64,000 nucleotides of DNA. It comes from a virus. Position 1 is the first letter of the stretch, and each line of letters opens with the position of its first letter. Below, piece after piece: positions 9,323 to 53,030 of the stretch. The notes below the pieces were generated by a model. That model was not told the origin of the DNA. It saw only the letters and a program-made list of their open reading frames with translations, and did no database searches. The stretch is taken from the IMG/VR virus record IMGVR_UViG_3300021335_000004; one strand, given 5' to 3'. Position numbers and translations under genes: made by a program.

Positions 9323-11608
9323 ATGACTGAAATAATTAAAAGAGACGGAACAAAAGAACTATTAAATATTGAAAAATTACATAAAGTAGTATTTTTTGCT
9401 TGTGAAGATATTGCAGGAGTTTCTCCTAGTGAAGTAGAGATGCATAGTCAGCTTCAGTTTTATGATGGTATTAAAAGTTCTGATATTCAAGAAACCTTAA
9501 TCAAATCAGCAGCGGATCTTATTAGTGAAGATACCCCAAACTATCAATATGTAGCTGGGCGTCTTATTACATATCACGTTCGTAAAATGGTTTATGGACA
9601 GTATGAACCTATTTCTTTGCGTGAATTAGTAGAAAAAAATATTGAACGTGGTTTTTACGATCCTGAGATATTAAACTACTACACTAAAAAAGAATTTGAT
9701 ATTCTAAATAAGCATATTAAACATAAGCGTGATGAAAATCTAACCTATGCTGCAATGGAGCAATTTAGAGGTAAATATTTAGTTCAAAACCGTGTAACAA
9801 AGCAAATATTTGAAACACCTCAAATGGCTTATATGTTAATCGCAATGACTTTATTTAATAGCTATGATAAAGAAAATAGAATTAGATGGGTAAGAGAATA
9901 TTATGATGCAATTAGTAACTTTGATATTAGTCTTCCTACTCCTGTGATGGCCGGTGTGCGCACACCACAAAGACAATTTAGCTCTTGTGTACTTATCGAA
10001 ACAGATGATTCACTTGATAGTATTAATGCTACTACTAGTAGTGTTGTTAAATATGTCAGCCAAAAAGCAGGCATTGGGATTGGAGCAGGTAGTATTAGAG
10101 CACTTGGTACTCCAATCCGGAATGGAGATGCTTACCACACAGGAGTTATTCCTTTTTATAAAATGTTTCAAGCAGCGACACGATCCTGTTCTCAAGGAGG
10201 AGTACGAAATGGTGCTGCTACTTTGTACTACCCAATTTGGCACTACGAAGTCGAAGATCTTTTAGTATTAAAAAATAATAAAGGTACAGAAGATAATAGG
10301 GTACGTCACATGGATTACGGAGTACAATTTAATAAATTAATGTACGAGCGTTTATTACAAGGAGGTGATATTACACTATTCTCTCCAAGTGACGTCCCAC
10401 ACCTATATCATTCTTTTTTTAATGATCAAGAATTGTTTAAAATTGTATATGAAAAAGCAGAAAAAAATCCTGATATTCGTAAAAAAACTATTAAAGCAAT
10501 TGATTTGTTTTCTATGTTTATGGAAGAACGTAAAAATACAGGACGCATTTATTTAATGAATGTAGACCATGCTAATACACACTCTTCTTTTGATGAAAAA
10601 TTAGCTCCGATACATCAATCTAATCTATGTTGTGAAATTGACTTACCAACAAAACCTTTACGTGATTTTAATGATCCTGACGGAGAAATTGCTCTATGTA
10701 CTCTTTCAGCAATCAATTGGGGTAATATTCGTAAACCAGAAGATTTTGCAAAACCTTGTGAACTTGCTGTTCGTGGATTAGACGCTTTGTTATCTTATCA
10801 ACACTACCCTGTTTTGGCAGCAGAAATTTCTACAGATCTTAGAAGACCTCTAGGTATTGGTATTATCAACCTAGCATATTGGTTGGCTAAAAATAATACA
10901 ACATATCAAAATCCAGATTTAGAGCTTATTGACGAATATGCAGAAGCATGGAGTTATTATTTAATTAAAGCTTCTAATGATTTAGCAATTGAACAAGGTT
11001 TTTGTCCTGGCTATGTGGAAACAAAATACGGTAAAGGTATTACTCCAAATCAAACATATAAAAAAGATGTTGATGAATTAGTACCTCATGTAGAGCGCAT
11101 GGATTGGGAATCTCTAAGAAAAAGTTTAAAAGAGCATGGTATTAGAAATTCTACTTTAATGGCTTTGATGCCTGCAGAAACCTCAGCTCAGATTTCTAAT
11201 GCTACAAACGGCATTGAGCCTCCTCGTAGTTTTGTAAGTATTAAACAATCAAAAGATGGAGTATTAAAGCAGGTTGTTCCGGGTATCCATAAACTAAAGA
11301 AAAAATATGATCTACTATGGGATCAAAAATCACCAGAAGGTTATTTAAAAATTATGGCAGTGTTACAAAAATACATTGACCAAGGCATTAGCGTAAACAC
11401 CAGTTATAATCCGGTGCATTATGAAGATGAGAAAATTCCAATGAGTACTATGATTCAGCATTTATTGATGTTTTATAAATACGGTGGAAAACAATTATAC
11501 TATTTTAATACTTACGATGGACAGGGAGAAATAGATATAAATAAATTAGATGAAGAATTACCTTTAGAAGATATTGATGAAGGAGAATGTGAAAGTTGCG
11601 TGATATGA
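9323..11608 (+). CDS. nrdA: class Ia ribonucleotide reductase alpha subunit
   Basis: N-terminal ATP cone (IIKRDG), QFSSCVL, SNLCCEI, CTLSAIN, LYY, C-terminal CESC; 761 aa, no intein. Confidence 0.98.
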   Translation: MTEIIKRDGTKELLNIEKLHKVVFFACEDIAGVSPSEVEMHSQLQFYDGIKSSDIQETLIKSAADLISEDTPNYQYVAGRLITYHVRKMVYGQYEPISLRELVEKNIERGFYDPEILNYYTKKEFDILNKHIKHKRDENLTYAAMEQFRGKYLVQNRVTKQIFETPQMAYMLIAMTLFNSYDKENRIRWVREYYDAISNFDISLPTPVMAGVRTPQRQFSSCVLIETDDSLDSINATTSSVVKYVSQKAGIGIGAGSIRALGTPIRNGDAYHTGVIPFYKMFQAATRSCSQGGVRNGAATLYYPIWHYEVEDLLVLKNNKGTEDNRVRHMDYGVQFNKLMYERLLQGGDITLFSPSDVPHLYHSFFNDQELFKIVYEKAEKNPDIRKKTIKAIDLFSMFMEERKNTGRIYLMNVDHANTHSSFDEKLAPIHQSNLCCEIDLPTKPLRDFNDPDGEIALCTLSAINWGNIRKPEDFAKPCELAVRGLDALLSYQHYPVLAAEISTDLRRPLGIGIINLAYWLAKNNTTYQNPDLELIDEYAEAWSYYLIKASNDLAIEQGFCPGYVETKYGKGITPNQTYKKDVDELVPHVERMDWESLRKSLKEHGIRNSTLMALMPAETSAQISNATNGIEPPRSFVSIKQSKDGVLKQVVPGIHKLKKKYDLLWDQKSPEGYLKIMAVLQKYIDQGISVNTSYNPVHYEDEKIPMSTMIQHLLMFYKYGGKQLYYFNTYDGQGEIDINKLDEELPLEDIDEGECESCVI

Positions 11609-12009
11609 AAAAATTAATTATGATAGGATTATTAGTCTCTACCCCTGTTTTTGCAGAAGATGCTATCGTCAACGACCATTATAAAACAGTTATTGAGCAA
11701 AAACCTTACAAAGTAGAAGTTTGTAAAGATGTTACAGTATCAGGAGATAAAACAAAAGACACTTTAATGGGAGCCATTATAGGCGGAGCAATAGGAAATA
11801 ATGTTACTAAAAATGTTGAAAATGGTGGCGCCGTTGGAGCATTGTTAGGAGGTATTATTGCTAATCAAAACAGCGATGCTACTGGAGGAACAACCAGACA
11901 GTGTTCTATAGAAACTCGTTACCAAGAAGAGTCAAAACAAGTATATAGTCATAGCACTGTTACTTTTTGGTCAAATGGAAAAAAATACAACTTAAGATTT
12001 GATAGGTGA
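11605..12009 (+). CDS. exported glycine-zipper 2TM domain protein
   Basis: Signal peptide MKKLIMIGLLVSTPVFA; GAIIGGAIGN...GAVGALLGGIIA glycine zipper; ATGA-coupled to nrdA. Confidence 0.8.
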   Translation: MKKLIMIGLLVSTPVFAEDAIVNDHYKTVIEQKPYKVEVCKDVTVSGDKTKDTLMGAIIGGAIGNNVTKNVENGGAVGALLGGIIANQNSDATGGTTRQCSIETRYQEESKQVYSHSTVTFWSNGKKYNLRFDR

Positions 12010-12013
12010 TAGG

Positions 12014-13138
12014 ATGACAATATTAAACACAAAACAGAATGATCATACAAAAGCAAAAATGTTTTTTGATGACGAAGATTTAGGTATGCAAAGATATGAT
12101 ACTCTCAAATATCGTGCATTTGATAAGCTTACTGACAAACAACTTGGTTTTTTCTGGAGGCCAGAAGAAATAGATATTTTACGTGATGCAGCTGATTTTA
12201 AAAATCTTACAGAACACGAGCAGCATATTTTTACATCTAATTTAAAGCGTCAAATTGTTTTAGACTCTGTACAAGGTCGTGCTCCTGCAGAATCCTTTGG
12301 CTCTATCGTAGGAATACCTGAACTTGAAAATTGGATTATTACTTGGACTTTTTCTGAGACTATTCATTCACGTTCTTATACTCATATTATTCGTAATATC
12401 TACCCTAATCCATCAATAGTGTTCGATGAAATGATGAATATTAGTGAAATTATAGACTGTGCAGATAGTATTTCTAAACATTATGATAAATTAATTGAAA
12501 TGACTAAATGGTATCAACTATTAGGAGAAGGTACTCACGAAGTCAATGGTAAAACAATCAAGATAGATCTTTATGAGCTTAAAAAATTACTATACTTATG
12601 TATTGCCAGTGTAAATATTCTTGAAGGAGTTCGTTTCTATGTAAGTTTTGCTTGTAGTTGGGCATTTGCTGAATTGAAGAAAATGGAAGGTAATGCTAAA
12701 ATTATTAAACTCATTGCCAGAGATGAAAATGTACACCTAGGCAGTACGCAACAAATACTAAAACTGCTTCCACAAGACGATCCCGAATTTATTAAAATCG
12801 CAAAAGAATGTGAAAAAGAAGTTATTAATATGTTTATCGAAGCAGTTGATCAAGAGAAACAATGGGCAGACTATTTGTTCAAGGACGGTTCAATGATTGG
12901 TCTTAATTCGCAACTACTAAAAGACTATATTGAATGGATTGGTAATAAGAGAATAACAGCTATAGGACTTAGCTCACCTTATTCTGTTCCTAGAGCCAAT
13001 CCATTACCTTGGACACAAAAATGGATTAGTGGTGCTGAAGTACAAGTAGCACCACAAGAAACGGAAATTTCTTCATACGTAATCGGAGGTACTAAGCAAG
13101 ATGTAACTAATGATTCGTTTAAGGGATTTTCACTTTAA
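12014..13138 (+). CDS. nrdB: class Ia ribonucleotide reductase beta subunit
   Basis: FFWRPEE, LDSVQGR, ETIHSRSYTH, EGVRFYVSF, RDENVH, VAPQETEISSY. Confidence 0.98.
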   Translation: MTILNTKQNDHTKAKMFFDDEDLGMQRYDTLKYRAFDKLTDKQLGFFWRPEEIDILRDAADFKNLTEHEQHIFTSNLKRQIVLDSVQGRAPAESFGSIVGIPELENWIITWTFSETIHSRSYTHIIRNIYPNPSIVFDEMMNISEIIDCADSISKHYDKLIEMTKWYQLLGEGTHEVNGKTIKIDLYELKKLLYLCIASVNILEGVRFYVSFACSWAFAELKKMEGNAKIIKLIARDENVHLGSTQQILKLLPQDDPEFIKIAKECEKEVINMFIEAVDQEKQWADYLFKDGSMIGLNSQLLKDYIEWIGNKRITAIGLSSPYSVPRANPLPWTQKWISGAEVQVAPQETEISSYVIGGTKQDVTNDSFKGFSL

Positions 13139-13154: not shown

Positions 13155-14234
13155 ATGAAGTATTTTGAAAAAGTGTTTCATACTATAGTAATCAGTATAT
13201 TTTTAGGTTTTATGTCAGCAATTGCTGTAGCATCAGAGCCTGTTAAGGTAGGTTTTGTATATGTCGGGCCTATCGGTGATCATGGCTGGACATATCGTCA
13301 TGACATTGGTCGTCAACAAGTAGAAGAAGCATACGGAGACAAAGTTAAAACAATCTACGCCGAAAGCGTACAATATGGCCCTGATGCAGAACGTGTAATC
13401 CGGCAGATGGCAAAAGAAGGTGCTGACATCATCTTTGCTACAAGTTTTGGTTATATGGAACCAATGCTTAAAGTTGCTAAAGACTTTCCAAATGTAAAGT
13501 TTGAACATGCGACAGGTTATAAACGTGCAGACAATATGAGTACATACGGATTGCGCTTGTATCAAGCACGCCATGTGCAAGGTGTTATTGCAGGACTAAT
13601 GACAAAGACAAACAAGATTTGTTATGTTGGTGCGTACCCTATTCCAGAAGTCATCCGTGAAATTAATACCTATTATATGGGTGCAAAGAGTGTAAATCCT
13701 AAAGTTGACATTGATGTCATTTGGGTAAACACTTGGTACGATCCTAGTAAAGAAGCAGATGCTGCCAACGTTATGATGGCAGAAGGCTGTGACATGATGG
13801 CACAACACACTGATTCACCTGCTCCATTACAGGCTGCACAACTAAAAGGCAAGTTAGGTTTTGGTCAAGCAAGTGATCAGATCAAGTTTGCTCCTAAAGC
13901 ACAACTTACAGCAACTATTGACAACTGGGGTCCTTACTACATTAAGAAAGTAGGGCAGGTTATTGATGGTAACTGGCAAGTTGAAGATTACTTTGGTCAT
14001 ATGAATGAAGATGCTGTGCAAATGGCGCCTTTTACAAATATGCCAGCAGACGTAGAAGCAAAAGCACAAGCAATTAAAGATGCTATTTCTAAAGGCGAGT
14101 ACTTTGCATTTACAGGCCCAATTAAAGACAACACTGGTAAACTGCAACTTGCAGACGGCGTTGTTGCTGACGATGCACACCTTAACAGCATGATGTATTA
14201 TGTTGAAGGTATTGACGCAACGGTACCTAAGTAA
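13155..14234 (+). CDS. BMP-family (purine/nucleoside) ABC transporter solute-binding protein
   Basis: Signal peptide without a lipobox Cys; KVGFVYVGPIGDHGWTY, IFATSFGY, FEHATGYK, PIPEVIREIN, WYDP, QHTDS; AGGA RBS before ATG 13155. Confidence 0.92.
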   Translation: MKYFEKVFHTIVISIFLGFMSAIAVASEPVKVGFVYVGPIGDHGWTYRHDIGRQQVEEAYGDKVKTIYAESVQYGPDAERVIRQMAKEGADIIFATSFGYMEPMLKVAKDFPNVKFEHATGYKRADNMSTYGLRLYQARHVQGVIAGLMTKTNKICYVGAYPIPEVIREINTYYMGAKSVNPKVDIDVIWVNTWYDPSKEADAANVMMAEGCDMMAQHTDSPAPLQAAQLKGKLGFGQASDQIKFAPKAQLTATIDNWGPYYIKKVGQVIDGNWQVEDYFGHMNEDAVQMAPFTNMPADVEAKAQAIKDAISKGEYFAFTGPIKDNTGKLQLADGVVADDAHLNSMMYYVEGIDATVPK

Positions 14235-15091
14235 TGATTCCAGTTATTGATTTCACATGTGAATCAGTATTGGAAGAGATTCGCGAAGCCTACACAACTG
14301 TGGGCTTCGCTGTTTTTACTAATACACTAAATCCCAAAGATAAACAAACCATGCATCACTGGTTTGATTACATGAAGCAGTTCTTTGAATTGGACTTAGA
14401 TACAAAAAAGAAATACAGTTATCAAGCAGAAAATAACTTAGGATACAGTGTAATGGGTGCAGAAAATGTAGACCCAACTGCTCCTAAAGATATGAAAGAA
14501 AGTTTTAATTACAATAATACTCGTATGCCTGACTCCCTATGGCCAGAGGAAGTTGACCTTCGTACAACAGGATTACAAACTATTCGTATTGCAGATGATC
14601 TAACACTGCGTATACTTGCTAAGTTTGATACTATCCTAGACTGCGGTACTACACTAGTAGATGCGCATCAGGATCCATATAATACAACACGAGTAATTCA
14701 CTACCCTGCATACACTGGTCCACTAGAAGACAAGCAAATGCGTATAGGTGAACACAGTGACTACGGCACCATCACACTGTTATGGCAGATCAATGATGTG
14801 CCAGGGCTTCAAGTACAGGATTTAGGAGGTGTCTGGCATCCTGTTCCCTATGCAGAAGATGGTGTCGTAGTTAACATTGGTGATTTGCTACAGCGTTGGA
14901 CTAATGATTATTTCGTTAGTACAAAGCACAGAGTAGTTAACACACACATTGACCAAACACGCTACAGTATGCCACACTTTGTAGATCCTACACCAGGAAC
15001 TATTGTAAGTAACCTGCGTGATGAACCTGCAAAGTATGATCCCATTGAAAGCAAAGCATACCTGATGTGGCGACTAGCACAGAGTTATTAA
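14234..15091 (+). CDS. isopenicillin-N-synthase-like 2OG-Fe(II) dioxygenase (DIOX_N + 2OG-FeII_Oxy)
   Basis: IPVIDF, VGF, FFELDL..KK, DMKESF, HYP, HSDYGTITLL, NIGDLLQRWTND, HRV, RYS. Confidence 0.92.
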   Translation: MIPVIDFTCESVLEEIREAYTTVGFAVFTNTLNPKDKQTMHHWFDYMKQFFELDLDTKKKYSYQAENNLGYSVMGAENVDPTAPKDMKESFNYNNTRMPDSLWPEEVDLRTTGLQTIRIADDLTLRILAKFDTILDCGTTLVDAHQDPYNTTRVIHYPAYTGPLEDKQMRIGEHSDYGTITLLWQINDVPGLQVQDLGGVWHPVPYAEDGVVVNIGDLLQRWTNDYFVSTKHRVVNTHIDQTRYSMPHFVDPTPGTIVSNLRDEPAKYDPIESKAYLMWRLAQSY

Positions 15092-15606
15092 TGATTAAAC
15101 AGTATATTAAAAGTTACCCAGACTTCCCTGTTGCAGACGTGGACTTTAAATGCACAGCAAGTTTATGTGCAAGTGAAGGATTTAAACTTACAAACAACTA
15201 CATGTATGATAACCTACTCAAGTATTGTCCTGTGGATAAAATTGTAGGTTTAGATGCAAGAGGTTTTATATTTGGTGCAGTGCTTGCACATAGAACAGGA
15301 AGCAGTCTTGTACTATGCCGTAAACAAGGCAAACTACCTGGTGCTACAGTAAGCAACACATTTGAACTAGAGTATGGTACTGCTACAATGGAAATACAAA
15401 AAGATAGTATCAACAGAGGCGATAGAGTTATTATTATAGACGACTTAATAGCTACTGGAGGTACTATGCAAGCCGCTATAGACATGATTTATGAACTACA
15501 CGCTACTCCTATTGCAGTAGCAGTAGCAATGGATTTAAATTTTTTAGGTGGTAGTAAAAAAATAAAAGAACAAGGTATAAATTTTTATGCTGCAACAAAG
15601 TATTAA
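15091..15606 (+). CDS. apt: adenine phosphoribosyltransferase
   Basis: PDFP, LDARGFIFG, RKQGKLPG, LEYGT, IIDDLIATGGT PRPP-binding loop; TAATG coupling at 15089-15093. Confidence 0.93.
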   Translation: MIKQYIKSYPDFPVADVDFKCTASLCASEGFKLTNNYMYDNLLKYCPVDKIVGLDARGFIFGAVLAHRTGSSLVLCRKQGKLPGATVSNTFELEYGTATMEIQKDSINRGDRVIIIDDLIATGGTMQAAIDMIYELHATPIAVAVAMDLNFLGGSKKIKEQGINFYAATKY

Positions 15607-50279: not shown

Positions 50280-51692
50280 TTAGCCAGCTGCGATATTACA
50301 AGCGAATGAGTAAGATGAGCTCAAAGTTGGGCTTGAAGCAGTTCCTGCAGTAGTCAAGGCTTTAAAGTCAAAGCGTGTTGACATATACATTGCAGTTACC
50401 TGCTGGCGTGGTTCGTACTCACTTTCGATTTCCATTCCACGTCTCTCACCGATAACAAATCCCGGCTTGTAAACAAGAGTTCCAAGAGTGTTCCATGAAG
50501 TTCCTGCGTTATCCATAAATTCAGAGATAACAACTGGAATTCCATAAATAGCTCCAAGAGCACCTGTTAAATAAGTGGCATTAGGGCCGAACTTATCTAC
50601 AGTACGGAAGTCTGACTCAGCTACAAGTGAGTTATAACCTTCAACACCAGTGATATATACTAATTGATCACCTAACTGAAGACCATACTTACCAAGAGTT
50701 GCACGTGCATCTGCGATTTCAGCAGGAGCAGCTTTAGCAGTAGAAGAACCGGTCTGTTGTTGTAACGCAGCAGCATTAGCAAGCTTAGTAATACCAGTAA
50801 TTACAGAAGCAAAACCAGTACCTGCTGTAATTGCGGCAGCGTTAGCAGTAAAGCCTGAGCTAGCACCAGTACCACGAAGGATTGATTTATCGATAGCACG
50901 GGCAATACGACGAGTTGTCGAAGCACGTAAGAAATCAATAAGAGGAAGAATTGTATCTTCTTCTTCATCCTTAGCAAGATGGGTTGAAGTCATAAACTTA
51001 TGTGGTGTTAAATCAATTGATTTAATCACGTTCTGATGTGAATCAGGAACGTTGCTGCTATCACCAATACCGGTAGCATATGTTCCAGACTCAAATTGAG
51101 CTACACCATCATTACTACCTGAGAAACCGTCATCTTCGTCAGCGACTGGGATACGGAAAGTTTTTGCATCAACTTGTACACGGTTGAACATTGGAGCAAC
51201 AACTAATTGCTGCTGCATTTCTTCATAGATGTTAGTTGAGAAGTTAGAAATAAAGTTCTCACCAGATTGAACAACAGCTTTCATTTTAGTACCAAGTCTA
51301 GTGTCCATTACATCACGTCTGTTAAGAGCGTATCCAAGCATAACAGCGTTAGCCATTTCTTTAGCAGAATATGGGTTTTCTTTACGCTGTGACTCTTGCC
51401 ACACCATTTTGCTATTTTGAAGAGCAGCAATTTCGTCTCTGTACTTCTCCATTTGAGCTTTAAGTTCAGCAACAGCTTCGTTTTCACGAGGTGTATATGC
51501 TGATTTTTCTTCAACAAGTTCTTGTCTATCACGAACGTCTGCTTGTTCCATGATAGCTTCACCAGTCTTTTGAACTAATTCGGCCACTCTAGGCTCTTGT
51601 ACCTCTATAGTGGCGGCTTTAGCTTCTGCTTGATTATTTTCGGCTGCACCAGTATCAATAGTTAGTACATCGCCTGCAGTTTGAGTAGCCAT
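50280..51692 (-). CDS. major capsid protein from an internal in-frame start (470 aa)
   Basis: AAAGGAG-AAAGACGAT-ATG GCT ACT CAA inside the fusion ORF, same frame. Confidence 0.72.
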   Translation of the reverse strand: MATQTAGDVLTIDTGAAENNQAEAKAATIEVQEPRVAELVQKTGEAIMEQADVRDRQELVEEKSAYTPRENEAVAELKAQMEKYRDEIAALQNSKMVWQESQRKENPYSAKEMANAVMLGYALNRRDVMDTRLGTKMKAVVQSGENFISNFSTNIYEEMQQQLVVAPMFNRVQVDAKTFRIPVADEDDGFSGSNDGVAQFESGTYATGIGDSSNVPDSHQNVIKSIDLTPHKFMTSTHLAKDEEEDTILPLIDFLRASTTRRIARAIDKSILRGTGASSGFTANAAAITAGTGFASVITGITKLANAAALQQQTGSSTAKAAPAEIADARATLGKYGLQLGDQLVYITGVEGYNSLVAESDFRTVDKFGPNATYLTGALGAIYGIPVVISEFMDNAGTSWNTLGTLVYKPGFVIGERRGMEIESEYEPRQQVTAMYMSTRFDFKALTTAGTASSPTLSSSYSFACNIAAG

Positions 51693-53030
51693 ATCGTCTT
51701 TCTCCTTTGTTTCGACAATCATTTGCCCATGTAATTTTAGGGCTAGATCTCTATGATCATTTGGGTTCATTTTATTCAATTCATGAATAATATTATTTAA
51801 GTAATTTGCAAAAACATAATCAGAATCTGACCAATCTTCGCCGTTTGCTTTTAGATTTAAAAGTTTGTTTAATTTCTCTTGTAAGTCTAAACTGTTAGTA
51901 ATAGATTCTTCGTCTTTTAAAGAGAATAAATATTGTTCAGTTGCATTATTTGTATTTTTATATGCTTCTTTAATTTCTTCTCTTACAGAATCGGATAATC
52001 TTGGTGTATTAGTATTAATTACATGAATATCATATTTTGTACCGATATCCCAAGTATTTACTACAGCCATTTCCTCTGCCGGAACTGTATCTATATTATC
52101 CACTGTTTTTCCATTTACGTCAACCTCTAAAAATTTAAAATTTGGAGATTCGGCAGTAGCAATCTTAGTAATTTTAAATCTTTTTCCTTCGTATTTTATA
52201 AAGGTATCAGTACTCAATGAAGAGGTTTCAGCAGATAAAAGATTTACAAAAGGAATTGGATCCATAGGATTAATTTCTTCTAATTCTTCTTCAGAAAGCT
52301 CTAAAGATGTTTCTTCCAAAATATCTTTAGTTTCTTCTGCTAGTTCTACTGTAATTTCTTCAGAGAGATCTTCATTTGAAGAATCATTTGTAGCTTTTTC
52401 TTCAACTTCAATCGCTTCTGCAGTTTCTACAGATTCAACAATGTCTGTTTCGGAAATGGCTTCAGACTTTTCTTCAATAGTATTATCTTCTGTGTCCATT
52501 TCTTCCTCGCTTTCTCCGTTTTTAAAGCTTTTTACAAATTCTTCATACTCAGAATCACCTTCAAAGCTTTTTCTAACACTAAATAGTGAGTTTTGATTAG
52601 CAGGTACACTAACCACGCTAATTTCTAACAACTCTACTTCTGTAATAGTCATAGAATCGTTATTTGCATCATACTTACCGTCTTTAACGCGAAAACCTAC
52701 TGAAAAACTTTTTAAAGCACCATCTTTAATTAAAGTTTGTACTCCGTGTAATTTTTCAGCAGCATCACTGACCATAGCATCTACATAAATTCCTTTTTTA
52801 TCAACAGTGACCTTATCTACTTTTCCAATAGGTTGATCATGTTTATGTTGATATAATAAAACAGGGTTTTTTCTATAATTTGCAACGCCTTTTGCCCATG
52901 CTTGAGCAGTTACTACGTCTCCGACCCTGTCTTTATCCGTAGTATTAGCATAGCCAGCAATTTTTAAACCATTAGAGTTTTTAATTCTTTTAGTTTCAAA
53001 AGCACTGTTCAGATAAAATGTTTTTTCCAT
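50280..53030 (-). CDS. HK97-type prohead protease fused in frame to the major capsid protein
   Basis: N-terminal IAGYANT..KDR.GD, NPVLLYQH...PIG, LKSFSVGF, LLEISVVSVPAN; C-terminal T5 pb8-like capsid (FSTNIYEE.QQQLVVAP.F, EEEDTILPL). Confidence 0.92.
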   Translation of the reverse strand: MEKTFYLNSAFETKRIKNSNGLKIAGYANTTDKDRVGDVVTAQAWAKGVANYRKNPVLLYQHKHDQPIGKVDKVTVDKKGIYVDAMVSDAAEKLHGVQTLIKDGALKSFSVGFRVKDGKYDANNDSMTITEVELLEISVVSVPANQNSLFSVRKSFEGDSEYEEFVKSFKNGESEEEMDTEDNTIEEKSEAISETDIVESVETAEAIEVEEKATNDSSNEDLSEEITVELAEETKDILEETSLELSEEELEEINPMDPIPFVNLLSAETSSLSTDTFIKYEGKRFKITKIATAESPNFKFLEVDVNGKTVDNIDTVPAEEMAVVNTWDIGTKYDIHVINTNTPRLSDSVREEIKEAYKNTNNATEQYLFSLKDEESITNSLDLQEKLNKLLNLKANGEDWSDSDYVFANYLNNIIHELNKMNPNDHRDLALKLHGQMIVETKEKDDMATQTAGDVLTIDTGAAENNQAEAKAATIEVQEPRVAELVQKTGEAIMEQADVRDRQELVEEKSAYTPRENEAVAELKAQMEKYRDEIAALQNSKMVWQESQRKENPYSAKEMANAVMLGYALNRRDVMDTRLGTKMKAVVQSGENFISNFSTNIYEEMQQQLVVAPMFNRVQVDAKTFRIPVADEDDGFSGSNDGVAQFESGTYATGIGDSSNVPDSHQNVIKSIDLTPHKFMTSTHLAKDEEEDTILPLIDFLRASTTRRIARAIDKSILRGTGASSGFTANAAAITAGTGFASVITGITKLANAAALQQQTGSSTAKAAPAEIADARATLGKYGLQLGDQLVYITGVEGYNSLVAESDFRTVDKFGPNATYLTGALGAIYGIPVVISEFMDNAGTSWNTLGTLVYKPGFVIGERRGMEIESEYEPRQQVTAMYMSTRFDFKALTTAGTASSPTLSSSYSFACNIAAG

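Follow-up and report, generated by a model that had tools for sequence, protein, structure and literature searches.

Orphan substrate-binding proteins and genes of nucleotide metabolism are both known kinds of phage cargo. Phage PstS is thought to raise phosphate uptake through the importer of the host; as in the cyanophages, the phage encodes only the periplasmic binder of an ATP-binding cassette (ABC) importer, for which the membrane parts of the host are needed. Binding of purine bases has been described for AtzT of Pseudomonas sp. ADP (PDB 6pi5), which binds guanine with a Kd of 0.11 µM, adenine with a Kd of 2.5 µM, and pyrimidines weakly, and adenine was modelled in the related 'basic membrane lipoprotein' of Brucella melitensis (PDB 3s99) (PMC6834077). 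Dissolved purines have come to be regarded as one of the main currencies of cross-feeding between microbes in the ocean (PMC11698098). Here, we describe a cassette of three genes (positions 13155-15606, plus strand) in the virus record IMGVR_UViG_3300021335_000004, analyzed as a window of 64,000 nt that forms part of a 70.8-kb IMG/VR record with an estimated completeness of ~61%. The cassette encodes a BMP-family periplasmic substrate-binding protein, an Fe(II)/2-oxoglutarate (2OG) oxygenase of the IPNS/DIOX_N family, and an adenine phosphoribosyltransferase (APRT). With a probability of roughly 0.68, we read it as a module that scavenges and salvages a free purine base inside the nucleotide-supply operon of a T5-like marine siphovirus.

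In the proposed mechanism, the signal peptide would export the BMP protein to the host periplasm, where the protein would bind a free purine base in an adenine-type pocket and hand it over to the BMP-type ABC permease and ATPase of the host itself, so that uptake would rise during infection in a manner comparable to phage PstS. The likeness to PstS is one of analogy and not of homology, as PstS belongs to another fold family and serves another nutrient, and here the binder is always coupled to a cytoplasmic oxygenase. The oxygenase would then oxidize the imported compound or a close derivative, with hydroxylation or oxidative N-dealkylation of the nucleobase as the likeliest reactions. Where APRT is present, it would convert adenine and phosphoribosyl pyrophosphate (PRPP) to AMP, from which, after phosphorylation, NrdAB and glutaredoxin could make deoxynucleotide for the AT-rich phage genome (66% A+T, GC 34%). 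A stem-loop inside the oxygenase gene probably sets a high ratio of BMP to oxygenase expression. In the full-text literature (a body lacking most subscription journals), no description was found of a purine-type binder locked to an oxygenase, whether in cells or in phages. Likewise, the cassette is not described in a paper on the auxiliary metabolic genes of pelagimyophages, and a preprint on nitrogen use by P. putida based on random-barcode transposon sequencing (RB-TnSeq) mentions no oxygenase in purine use.

The three genes and their operon

The first gene (13155-14234) encodes a BMP-family protein of 359 amino acids (aa), which matches Pfam PF02608 over residues 45-311 (E 3e-53; 181.2 bits against a cut-off of 24.1). 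Both 3s99 (E 2e-118) and AtzT (E 3e-105) are matched over the full length. The ligand residues of AtzT are Y45, S97, F98, E165, N169, W194, N218, and N220 (PMC6834077), and these numbers coincide with the numbering of the phage protein in HMMER alignments. The phage protein carries W45, S97, F98, E165, W194, H218, and D220, which are invariant across 19 phage copies. It shares the aromatic sandwich (W45/W194) and the polar residues (S97, the backbone of F98, and E165) with 3s99 and AtzT, and it equals 3s99, the structure with the modelled adenine, at all seven core ligand positions, including 218 and 220, where AtzT differs. By its sequence, the protein can be assigned to the purine-base-binding clade of 3s99 and AtzT. 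Because of this membership and the conserved ligand residues, a free purine base that is probably adenine-like is the best inference for its ligand, which agrees with the purine-type binder put forward in a preliminary description of the locus. Unlike 3s99 and AtzT, the phage copy comes without a permease or ATPase, and its N-terminus reads as a Sec-type signal peptide (MKYFEKVFHTIVISIFLGFMSAIAVA/SE) without a lipobox cysteine. PHROGs contains no family for the protein.

The second gene (14234-15091) encodes a protein of 285 aa with matches to the Pfam domains DIOX_N (E 2e-16) and 2OG-FeII_Oxy (E 8e-21). The iron triad H174-x-D176...H232 and the 2OG anchor R243-x-S245 do not vary among 30 homologues from phages and bacteria. 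No signal peptide was found, and the enzyme is predicted to be cytoplasmic. Its AlphaFold model (pLDDT 92.9) gave Neurospora crassa thymine 7-hydroxylase (T7H, PDB 5c3p) as the best Foldseek match, with a TM score of 0.86 and 31% identity, and T7H (PDB 5c3p-5c3s) was also the best sequence match among solved structures (E 3e-25), so that the kinship to T7H suggested earlier holds. Judged by its domains, the HxD...H and RxS motifs, and the modelled double-stranded beta-helix fold, the protein is assigned to the IPNS/DIOX_N subfamily of the Fe(II)/2OG oxygenases. In PHROGs it falls in phrog_30382 (unknown function), and in an exhaustive search without profiles the phage oxygenases fell together into one 50% cluster.

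The key residues of T7H are N87, E122, R190, Y217, F292, and N294 (PMC4787775). Four of these six substrate-binding residues are kept in the phage enzyme (N87 as N68, R190 as R153, Y217 as Y177, and F292 as F249), and all four are common in the wider bacterial subfamily; E122 and N294 are replaced by N92 and D251. The two enzymes share the metal triad, the 2OG-binding R/S/Y, and the residues that sandwich the free base, but T7H is longer (343 aa), and the genomic partners of the phage oxygenase are a purine binder and APRT, not genes of pyrimidine salvage. The phage enzyme is not filed as a T7H. Important to note here is that the comparison of homologues yielded no active-site residues specific to the BMP-linked oxygenases. 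Because the same residues occur in homologues without a BMP linkage, the conserved pocket speaks for a T7H-like active-site architecture and does not indicate a purine substrate.

The third gene (15091-15606; 171 aa) exceeds the cut-off of 125 of the NCBIfam equivalog NF002636 with 164.7 bits; four other APRT equivalog models stay below their own cut-offs, including TIGR01090 (155.6 against 185.85). Solved APRTs are matched with an E-value of 8e-36 and the PRPP loop, VIIIDDLIATGGT, is intact, from which the gene is identified as an APRT. The proteins related to it at 50-88% identity come from marine metagenomes and are unnamed, and the closest matches named as bacterial reach at most 46%; a metagenome-assembled genome (MAG) labelled Euryarchaeota gives 53%. 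Among the 54 viral loci with enough downstream sequence for evaluation, APRT was found in 16, directly adjacent to the oxygenase gene in 12. Another 12 viral loci have an AsnA-like gene with a class II synthetase fold after the oxygenase. Where APRT is absent, this AsnA-like protein (for example, L066 7962-8807; 281 aa) has the fold of class II aminoacyl-tRNA synthetases and consists of the catalytic domain only.

A narrower version of the mechanism, in line with the preliminary description, would have the oxygenase demethylate or dealkylate an imported modified adenine, such as N6-, 1-, or 3-methyladenine or a cytokinin-like N6-substituted adenine, and so deliver adenine to APRT. The nearest solved relative, T7H, does act on the methyl group of a free base, the BMP pocket equals the adenine-containing 3s99 at H218 and D220, and APRT follows directly in 12 loci. 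However, most loci lack APRT, the pocket residues give no evidence for a class of substrate, and modified adenines are expected, by our own reasoning, to be far rarer than adenine. We consider this version unlikely.

All three open reading frames (ORFs) lie in a single plus-strand block that runs through nrdA (9323-11608), a gene for a secreted glycine-zipper protein (11605-12009), nrdB (11999-13138), the BMP, oxygenase, and APRT genes, and then, between 15618 and 17733, the genes for glutaredoxin, a PD-(D/E)XK nuclease, a 5'-3' flap exonuclease, and dUTPase in this order. The cassette is embedded in the nucleotide and replication block of the phage that extends from nrdAB to dUTPase. The nrdB stop at 13138 is separated from the BMP start codon (ATG, 13155) by 16 nt containing an AAAGGA ribosome-binding site, and the gaps that flank the cassette (nrdB/BMP and APRT/glutaredoxin) are just 11-16 nt long. 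The joining of the three genes by TAATG overlaps, as described before, was confirmed: the BMP stop and oxygenase start share TAATG at 14232-14236, and the oxygenase stop and APRT start share TAATG at 15089-15093. A scan for promoters and terminators found no excess over shuffled sequence. The glycine-zipper gene overlaps both nrdA and nrdB; its product has a signal peptide (MKKLIMIGLLVSTPVFA) and a match to Rick_17kDa_Anti, and ~12 other viral loci have a homologue with 36-65% identity directly upstream of the BMP gene or no more than 2 kb away from it.

The segment had been called GC-richer and captured as a unit of three genes, which stands for the first two only. The BMP gene (GC 0.405, GC at third codon positions (GC3) 0.30) and the oxygenase gene (GC 0.402, GC3 0.32) exceed the GC3 of 0.14-0.23 in 12 other genes of the window, and APRT (GC 0.353, GC3 0.22) resembles this backbone, which points to a relatively recent arrival in this backbone of the BMP-oxygenase pair and not of APRT. 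Because of its backbone-like codon composition and its presence in just ~30% of the loci, APRT is a variable add-on, and the captured unit consists of BMP and oxygenase only. Over 61 loci, the GC content of the pair correlates with that of its flanks (r 0.78), with the pair being slightly higher in 57.

That the cassette is phage-encoded, as claimed before, was substantiated by the remainder of the contig. It carries a PolA-type DNA polymerase, a helicase, an SbcC-like nuclease subunit, the class I ribonucleotide reductase, the flap exonuclease and dUTPase, a J-like central tail fibre, a major tail protein, and a fused prohead protease/major head gene. For the fused gene, the closest isolates, with ~30% identity, are T5-like phages of ~110 kb that infect Vibrio, Serratia, and E. 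coli. Because these T5-like replication, head, and tail genes share the contig with the cassette, the phage can be classified by its gene content as a distant T5-like siphovirus, and bacterial contamination or mis-binning of the window is ruled out.

The binder-oxygenase pair in phages and bacteria

Relatives of the BMP protein with 75-99% identity were found on 241 contigs in a scan of IMG/VR, from which 80 loci were fetched for neighbourhood analysis. Linkage of the genes elsewhere, which the preliminary description had named as a check on its proposal, was evident for the pair: the oxygenase gene follows directly after BMP in 77 of the 80 viral loci and 3.4 kb downstream in one, and the two others end at BMP. 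On the upstream side, the neighbours met most often are genes for T4-type lysozyme, a HAD phosphatase that lacks a signal peptide, and GTP cyclohydrolase I. Since longer contigs with the pair (150-170 kb) offer contexts with a T4 spanin, a phage DsbA, a PstS-type gene, and UvdE, the pair occurs in T4-like myoviruses as well as in T5-like siphoviruses. In one T4-like contig (L085), a PBP_like_2 (PstS-type) gene even adjoins the cassette. The cassette is widespread and old among phages and not a one-off capture, and its genes, located on a bona fide phage contig and with BMP recurrent over 241 contigs, are phage auxiliary metabolic genes. Among INPHARED isolates, no close BMP or oxygenase was found; the best matches are unannotated gut 'Bacteriophage sp.' records at no more than 40% identity.

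No ABC permease or ATPase genes were found around any of 85 viral loci. For the phage described here, the reported lack of a permease and ATPase was confirmed at the scale of the record: no BPD_transp_2 permease (PF02653) occurs in the whole 70.8 kb, although with a record that is ~61% complete this does not prove absence from the whole phage, and the sole ABC_tran (PF00005) match is weak, below threshold, and located in the SbcC-like gene. A complete BMP-type importer, meaning two BPD_transp_2 permeases and an ATPase together with the binder, is accordingly not present in the 70.8-kb record.

The best matches to the BMP protein in a search of 185,579 species genomes showed 50-60% identity. 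In 13 of the 80 best cellular loci, the BMP gene is followed by an oxygenase homologue of 29-34% identity (Pseudomonas, Azotobacter, Stutzerimonas, Agarivorans, and Parathalassolituus), and one Pseudomonas locus has an ABC ATPase and two permeases upstream of the BMP-oxygenase pair. A homologue of 40% identity also directly follows a BMP gene, and a cyanobacterial homologue of 38% is not BMP-linked. Full-length relatives of the oxygenase at 44% identity were found in Nitrospina MAGs as the next best after the 50% cluster of the phage oxygenases. Their contigs (L167-L169) have the order permease-permease-BMP-oxygenase-BMP, followed by a 69-aa AtzG-like ORF and an AtzE-family amidohydrolase gene (340 bits, under the cut-off of 461 bits). 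In a gammaproteobacterial MAG (L170), a homologue of 37% identity belongs to the cluster ABC-permease-permease-BMP-formamidase-oxygenase. The order BMP then oxygenase is thus shared by phages and the bacterial BMP-type ABC operons with an IPNS-family oxygenase (Nitrospina, Pseudomonas, Azotobacter, and Agarivorans), whose oxygenases are 29-44% identical to the phage enzyme; unlike the phages, these operons carry permeases and an ATPase, and they lack the stem-loop of the phage clade except for a weak 7-bp form in Nitrospina. Taken together, these comparisons indicate that the pairing is older than the phages.

Two side observations concern these cellular operons. The one in Nitrospina could represent a pathway of uptake and nitrogen release for some N-heterocycle in a nitrite oxidizer. 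In L170, the formamidase gene (570 bits, above the cut-off) lies between a divergent BMP gene and the oxygenase gene, and AtzH-like, amidase, AtzG-like, isochorismatase-family, and XdhC genes are found nearby on the other strand.

The cellular neighbours lend themselves to another explanation, in which the phage module harvests nitrogen. BMP would import a purine or another N-rich heterocycle, the oxygenase would perform a molybdenum-independent ring hydroxylation following the logic of fungal XanA, and catabolism by host enzymes would give ammonium to an N-limited infected cell, with APRT being an unrelated nucleotide gene alongside. Such a role would fit the AtzE-family amidohydrolase and small AtzG-like ORF next to the Nitrospina pair and the formamidase, AtzE/G/H-like, isochorismatase-family, and XdhC genes next to the gammaproteobacterial one. 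It would also fit the AsnA-like gene that 12 loci have behind the oxygenase and the lack of APRT in ~70% of the viral loci, and an ABC transporter of SAR11 is known to serve nitrogen-harvesting purine use (PMC11698098). On the other hand, none of the viral loci showed catabolic genes downstream, and here the pair lies inside an nrdAB-glutaredoxin-dUTPase operon with APRT joined by a TAATG overlap. Nitrogen harvesting is considered quite improbable.

The SAR116 link and the weight of the evidence

Among 401 sampled alphaproteobacterial genomes, one carries a BMP protein with 81% identity to that of the phage. In the family of this genome, identified by exact-sequence look-up of the oxygenases as Candidatus Puniceispirillaceae (SAR116 clade), 70 of 81 sampled genomes carry a BMP protein of this clade. 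Sixty-six of these are 'ordinary' copies with 36-58% identity to the phage protein, nearly all within 52-58%. The other four genomes have a BMP protein of 77-81% identity, each followed by an oxygenase of 62-65% that is found in just these four of the 81. Apart from these four genomes, the phage BMP proteins form a separate clade with 50-60% identity to all sampled cellular proteins. The best-covered SAR116 pair is located on a 254-kb contig of 45% GC in a chromosomal setting of sugar-acid dehydratases, a gluconolactonase, and an EamA transporter. Three of the four pair genomes (L183 11852-12523, L184, and L186) have a Glyoxalase_3 gene (VOC fold) after the oxygenase gene, whose end it overlaps; no homologue of it was found in the viral loci.

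Ordinary SAR116 genomes have an operon of the order ATPase-permease-permease-BMP. All four genomes that carry the phage-type pair have the orthologous ATPase-permease-permease operon as well, with no BMP gene after it, and the pair sits elsewhere. They retain one other Bmp-family gene, which is of a different, PnrA-like type and in the one genome checked (G291) adjoins its own pair of permease genes. The phage-type BMP protein seems to have replaced the cell's own, and the simplest reading of this arrangement is that the phage-type binder serves the native SAR116 permease. Because the phage-type BMP co-occurs with a native operon that lacks a substrate-binding protein (SBP), docking to a host permease, which the preliminary description had proposed by analogy to phage PstS, gains comparative support. 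In two SAR116 genomes (G446:C1:169059-170861 and G420:C112:1310-3057), the PnrA-like Bmp gene is directly preceded by a gene for a different oxygenase paralogue of ~280 aa with 31-32% identity to the phage enzyme, so that binder-oxygenase adjacency recurs with another BMP subfamily.

The native operon without a BMP gene bears on the idea that BMP is not for uptake at all and acts as a periplasmic sink or sensor. It might, for example, recapture adenine freed by an ATP-cleaving defence of the host, with APRT rebuilding the adenylate pool, or signal through a host receptor. An orphan binder in a record without transporter genes would suit such a role. Transport, however, predicts what is seen in these SAR116 genomes, where the phage-type BMP occurs together with a permease operon that is of the matching type and lacks an SBP, and a sink or sensor leaves the strict pairing with a cytoplasmic oxygenase unexplained. 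We regard this explanation as very improbable.

In a maximum-likelihood tree of BMP proteins, the copies from phages and from the SAR116 pairs form one clade (SH-aLRT support 99), whose sister is the ordinary SAR116 BMP (96), and the four SAR116-pair copies fall among the phage branches. The oxygenase tree again unites phages and SAR116 pairs in a clade (93), at the base of which the SAR116 copies branch without resolution, and the Nitrospina-type enzymes come next. Because of the sister relation to the ordinary BMP and the position of the pair copies among the phage branches, we read the phage BMP as having arisen within SAR116 and having later been exchanged, be it one way or both ways. Judging from these sequences, SAR116 is the most likely host lineage, at least ancestrally. 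A tRNA search for a clue to the host found none, and a nucleotide search with a T4-like cassette contig gave a weak lysozyme match to Pelagibacter phages that was not used for host assignment.

Several points weigh against scavenging and salvage of a free purine base by a SAR116-linked phage. The purine-binding, import, and oxygenase activities are themselves predictions from sequence, and the T7H-like pocket residues, which also occur in homologues that are not BMP-linked, lend no weight to a purine substrate. As ~70% of the evaluable loci lack APRT, the pair does not lead to adenine salvage in every case, and the cellular neighbours of related pairs (AtzE-family amidohydrolase, formamidase, and XdhC) suggest catabolism over salvage. 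The trees are quick maximum-likelihood searches with SH-aLRT support only. Lastly, the assignment of the host is an indirect one, and the phage has a GC content of 34% versus 44-54% in the SAR116 loci; low-GC phages on hosts of 45-55% GC have a precedent in T4 and T5 on E. coli.

If purine scavenging is true, viruses would be drawing on the dissolved-purine pool themselves, given that hundreds of uncultured phages carry such a high-affinity binder. That the binder is so strictly coupled to an oxygenase, both in cells and in phages, suggests a reaction that is missing from the maps of nucleobase metabolism. As a tentative idea that we would sooner doubt than accept, the oxygenase may found an unrecognized class of Fe/2OG oxygenases that act on free nucleobases (purine or purine-like) as dedicated cytoplasmic partners of BMP-type importers in SAR116, Nitrospina, Pseudomonas, and hundreds of ocean phages. 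It would then supply a step missing from maps of purine salvage and catabolism, such as the oxidative dealkylation of modified adenines or a molybdenum-independent purine hydroxylation, the phages would redirect the flux of dissolved purines, and the hairpin in the ORF would tune the ratio of binder to enzyme. The SAR116 genomes with the phage-type binder offer a natural experiment on whether the permease of a host can work with an orphan binding protein of viral type, and at the same time a clue to the hosts of a large group of marine T4-like and T5-like phages that are still uncultured.

The stem-loop in the oxygenase gene and further observations

At 14283-14310 (plus strand), 49 nt past the BMP stop, codons 17-26 of the oxygenase ORF contain a stem-loop with a 12-bp stem and a 4-nt loop, followed by a T-rich tract, TGTTTTTAC. 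Its minimum free energy is -25.8 kcal/mol (z -6.4). Pairing holds in 93.6% of cells over 59 distinct sequences from viruses, compared with 35-48% when the partners are slid; as the structure was derived from the same 59 sequences, this slide control is generous, and the pattern at synonymous sites is the stronger argument. Third-codon sites in the stem vary in pair-keeping ways only (TAC/TAT, GTG/GTA, and TTC/TTT), a GCC alanine and a GGC glycine codon in the stem are nearly fixed despite the AT-rich genomes, and two stem pairs show compensatory replacements of GC by AU or UA.

The hairpin is present in viral loci L002-L081 and is kept in all four SAR116 copies (L183-L186), whose proteins share 62-64% identity with the phage enzyme. 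The oxygenase homologues of Pseudomonas and of the gammaproteobacterial MAG lack the hairpin, and Rfam gave no match to it. The stem-loop is a candidate for a partial terminator, a stabilizer of the mRNA 3' end, or a translational brake. The reading that we favour is a partial terminator or 3' stabilizer, which would yield more binder than enzyme.

A further copy of the whole cassette was seen on contig PBLX01000022.1 of GCA_002722435.1 (L082), which is labelled as a Legionellales MAG. At 61 kb, this contig resembles a phage genome binned into the MAG, with many unannotated small genes, FolE, PTPS, the BMP-oxygenase-APRT cassette, and a second phosphoribosyltransferase. Its unusual phage cargo includes a gene for an S8 peptidase of 1073 aa and a full-length cytochrome b gene.

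In the window itself, the fused head gene mentioned above is a single ORF of 916 aa on the minus strand (50280-53030), which joins a prohead-protease-like part (residues ~11-240) to a major-head-protein-like part (~477-891); in the matching T5-like isolates, these two parts are separate genes.

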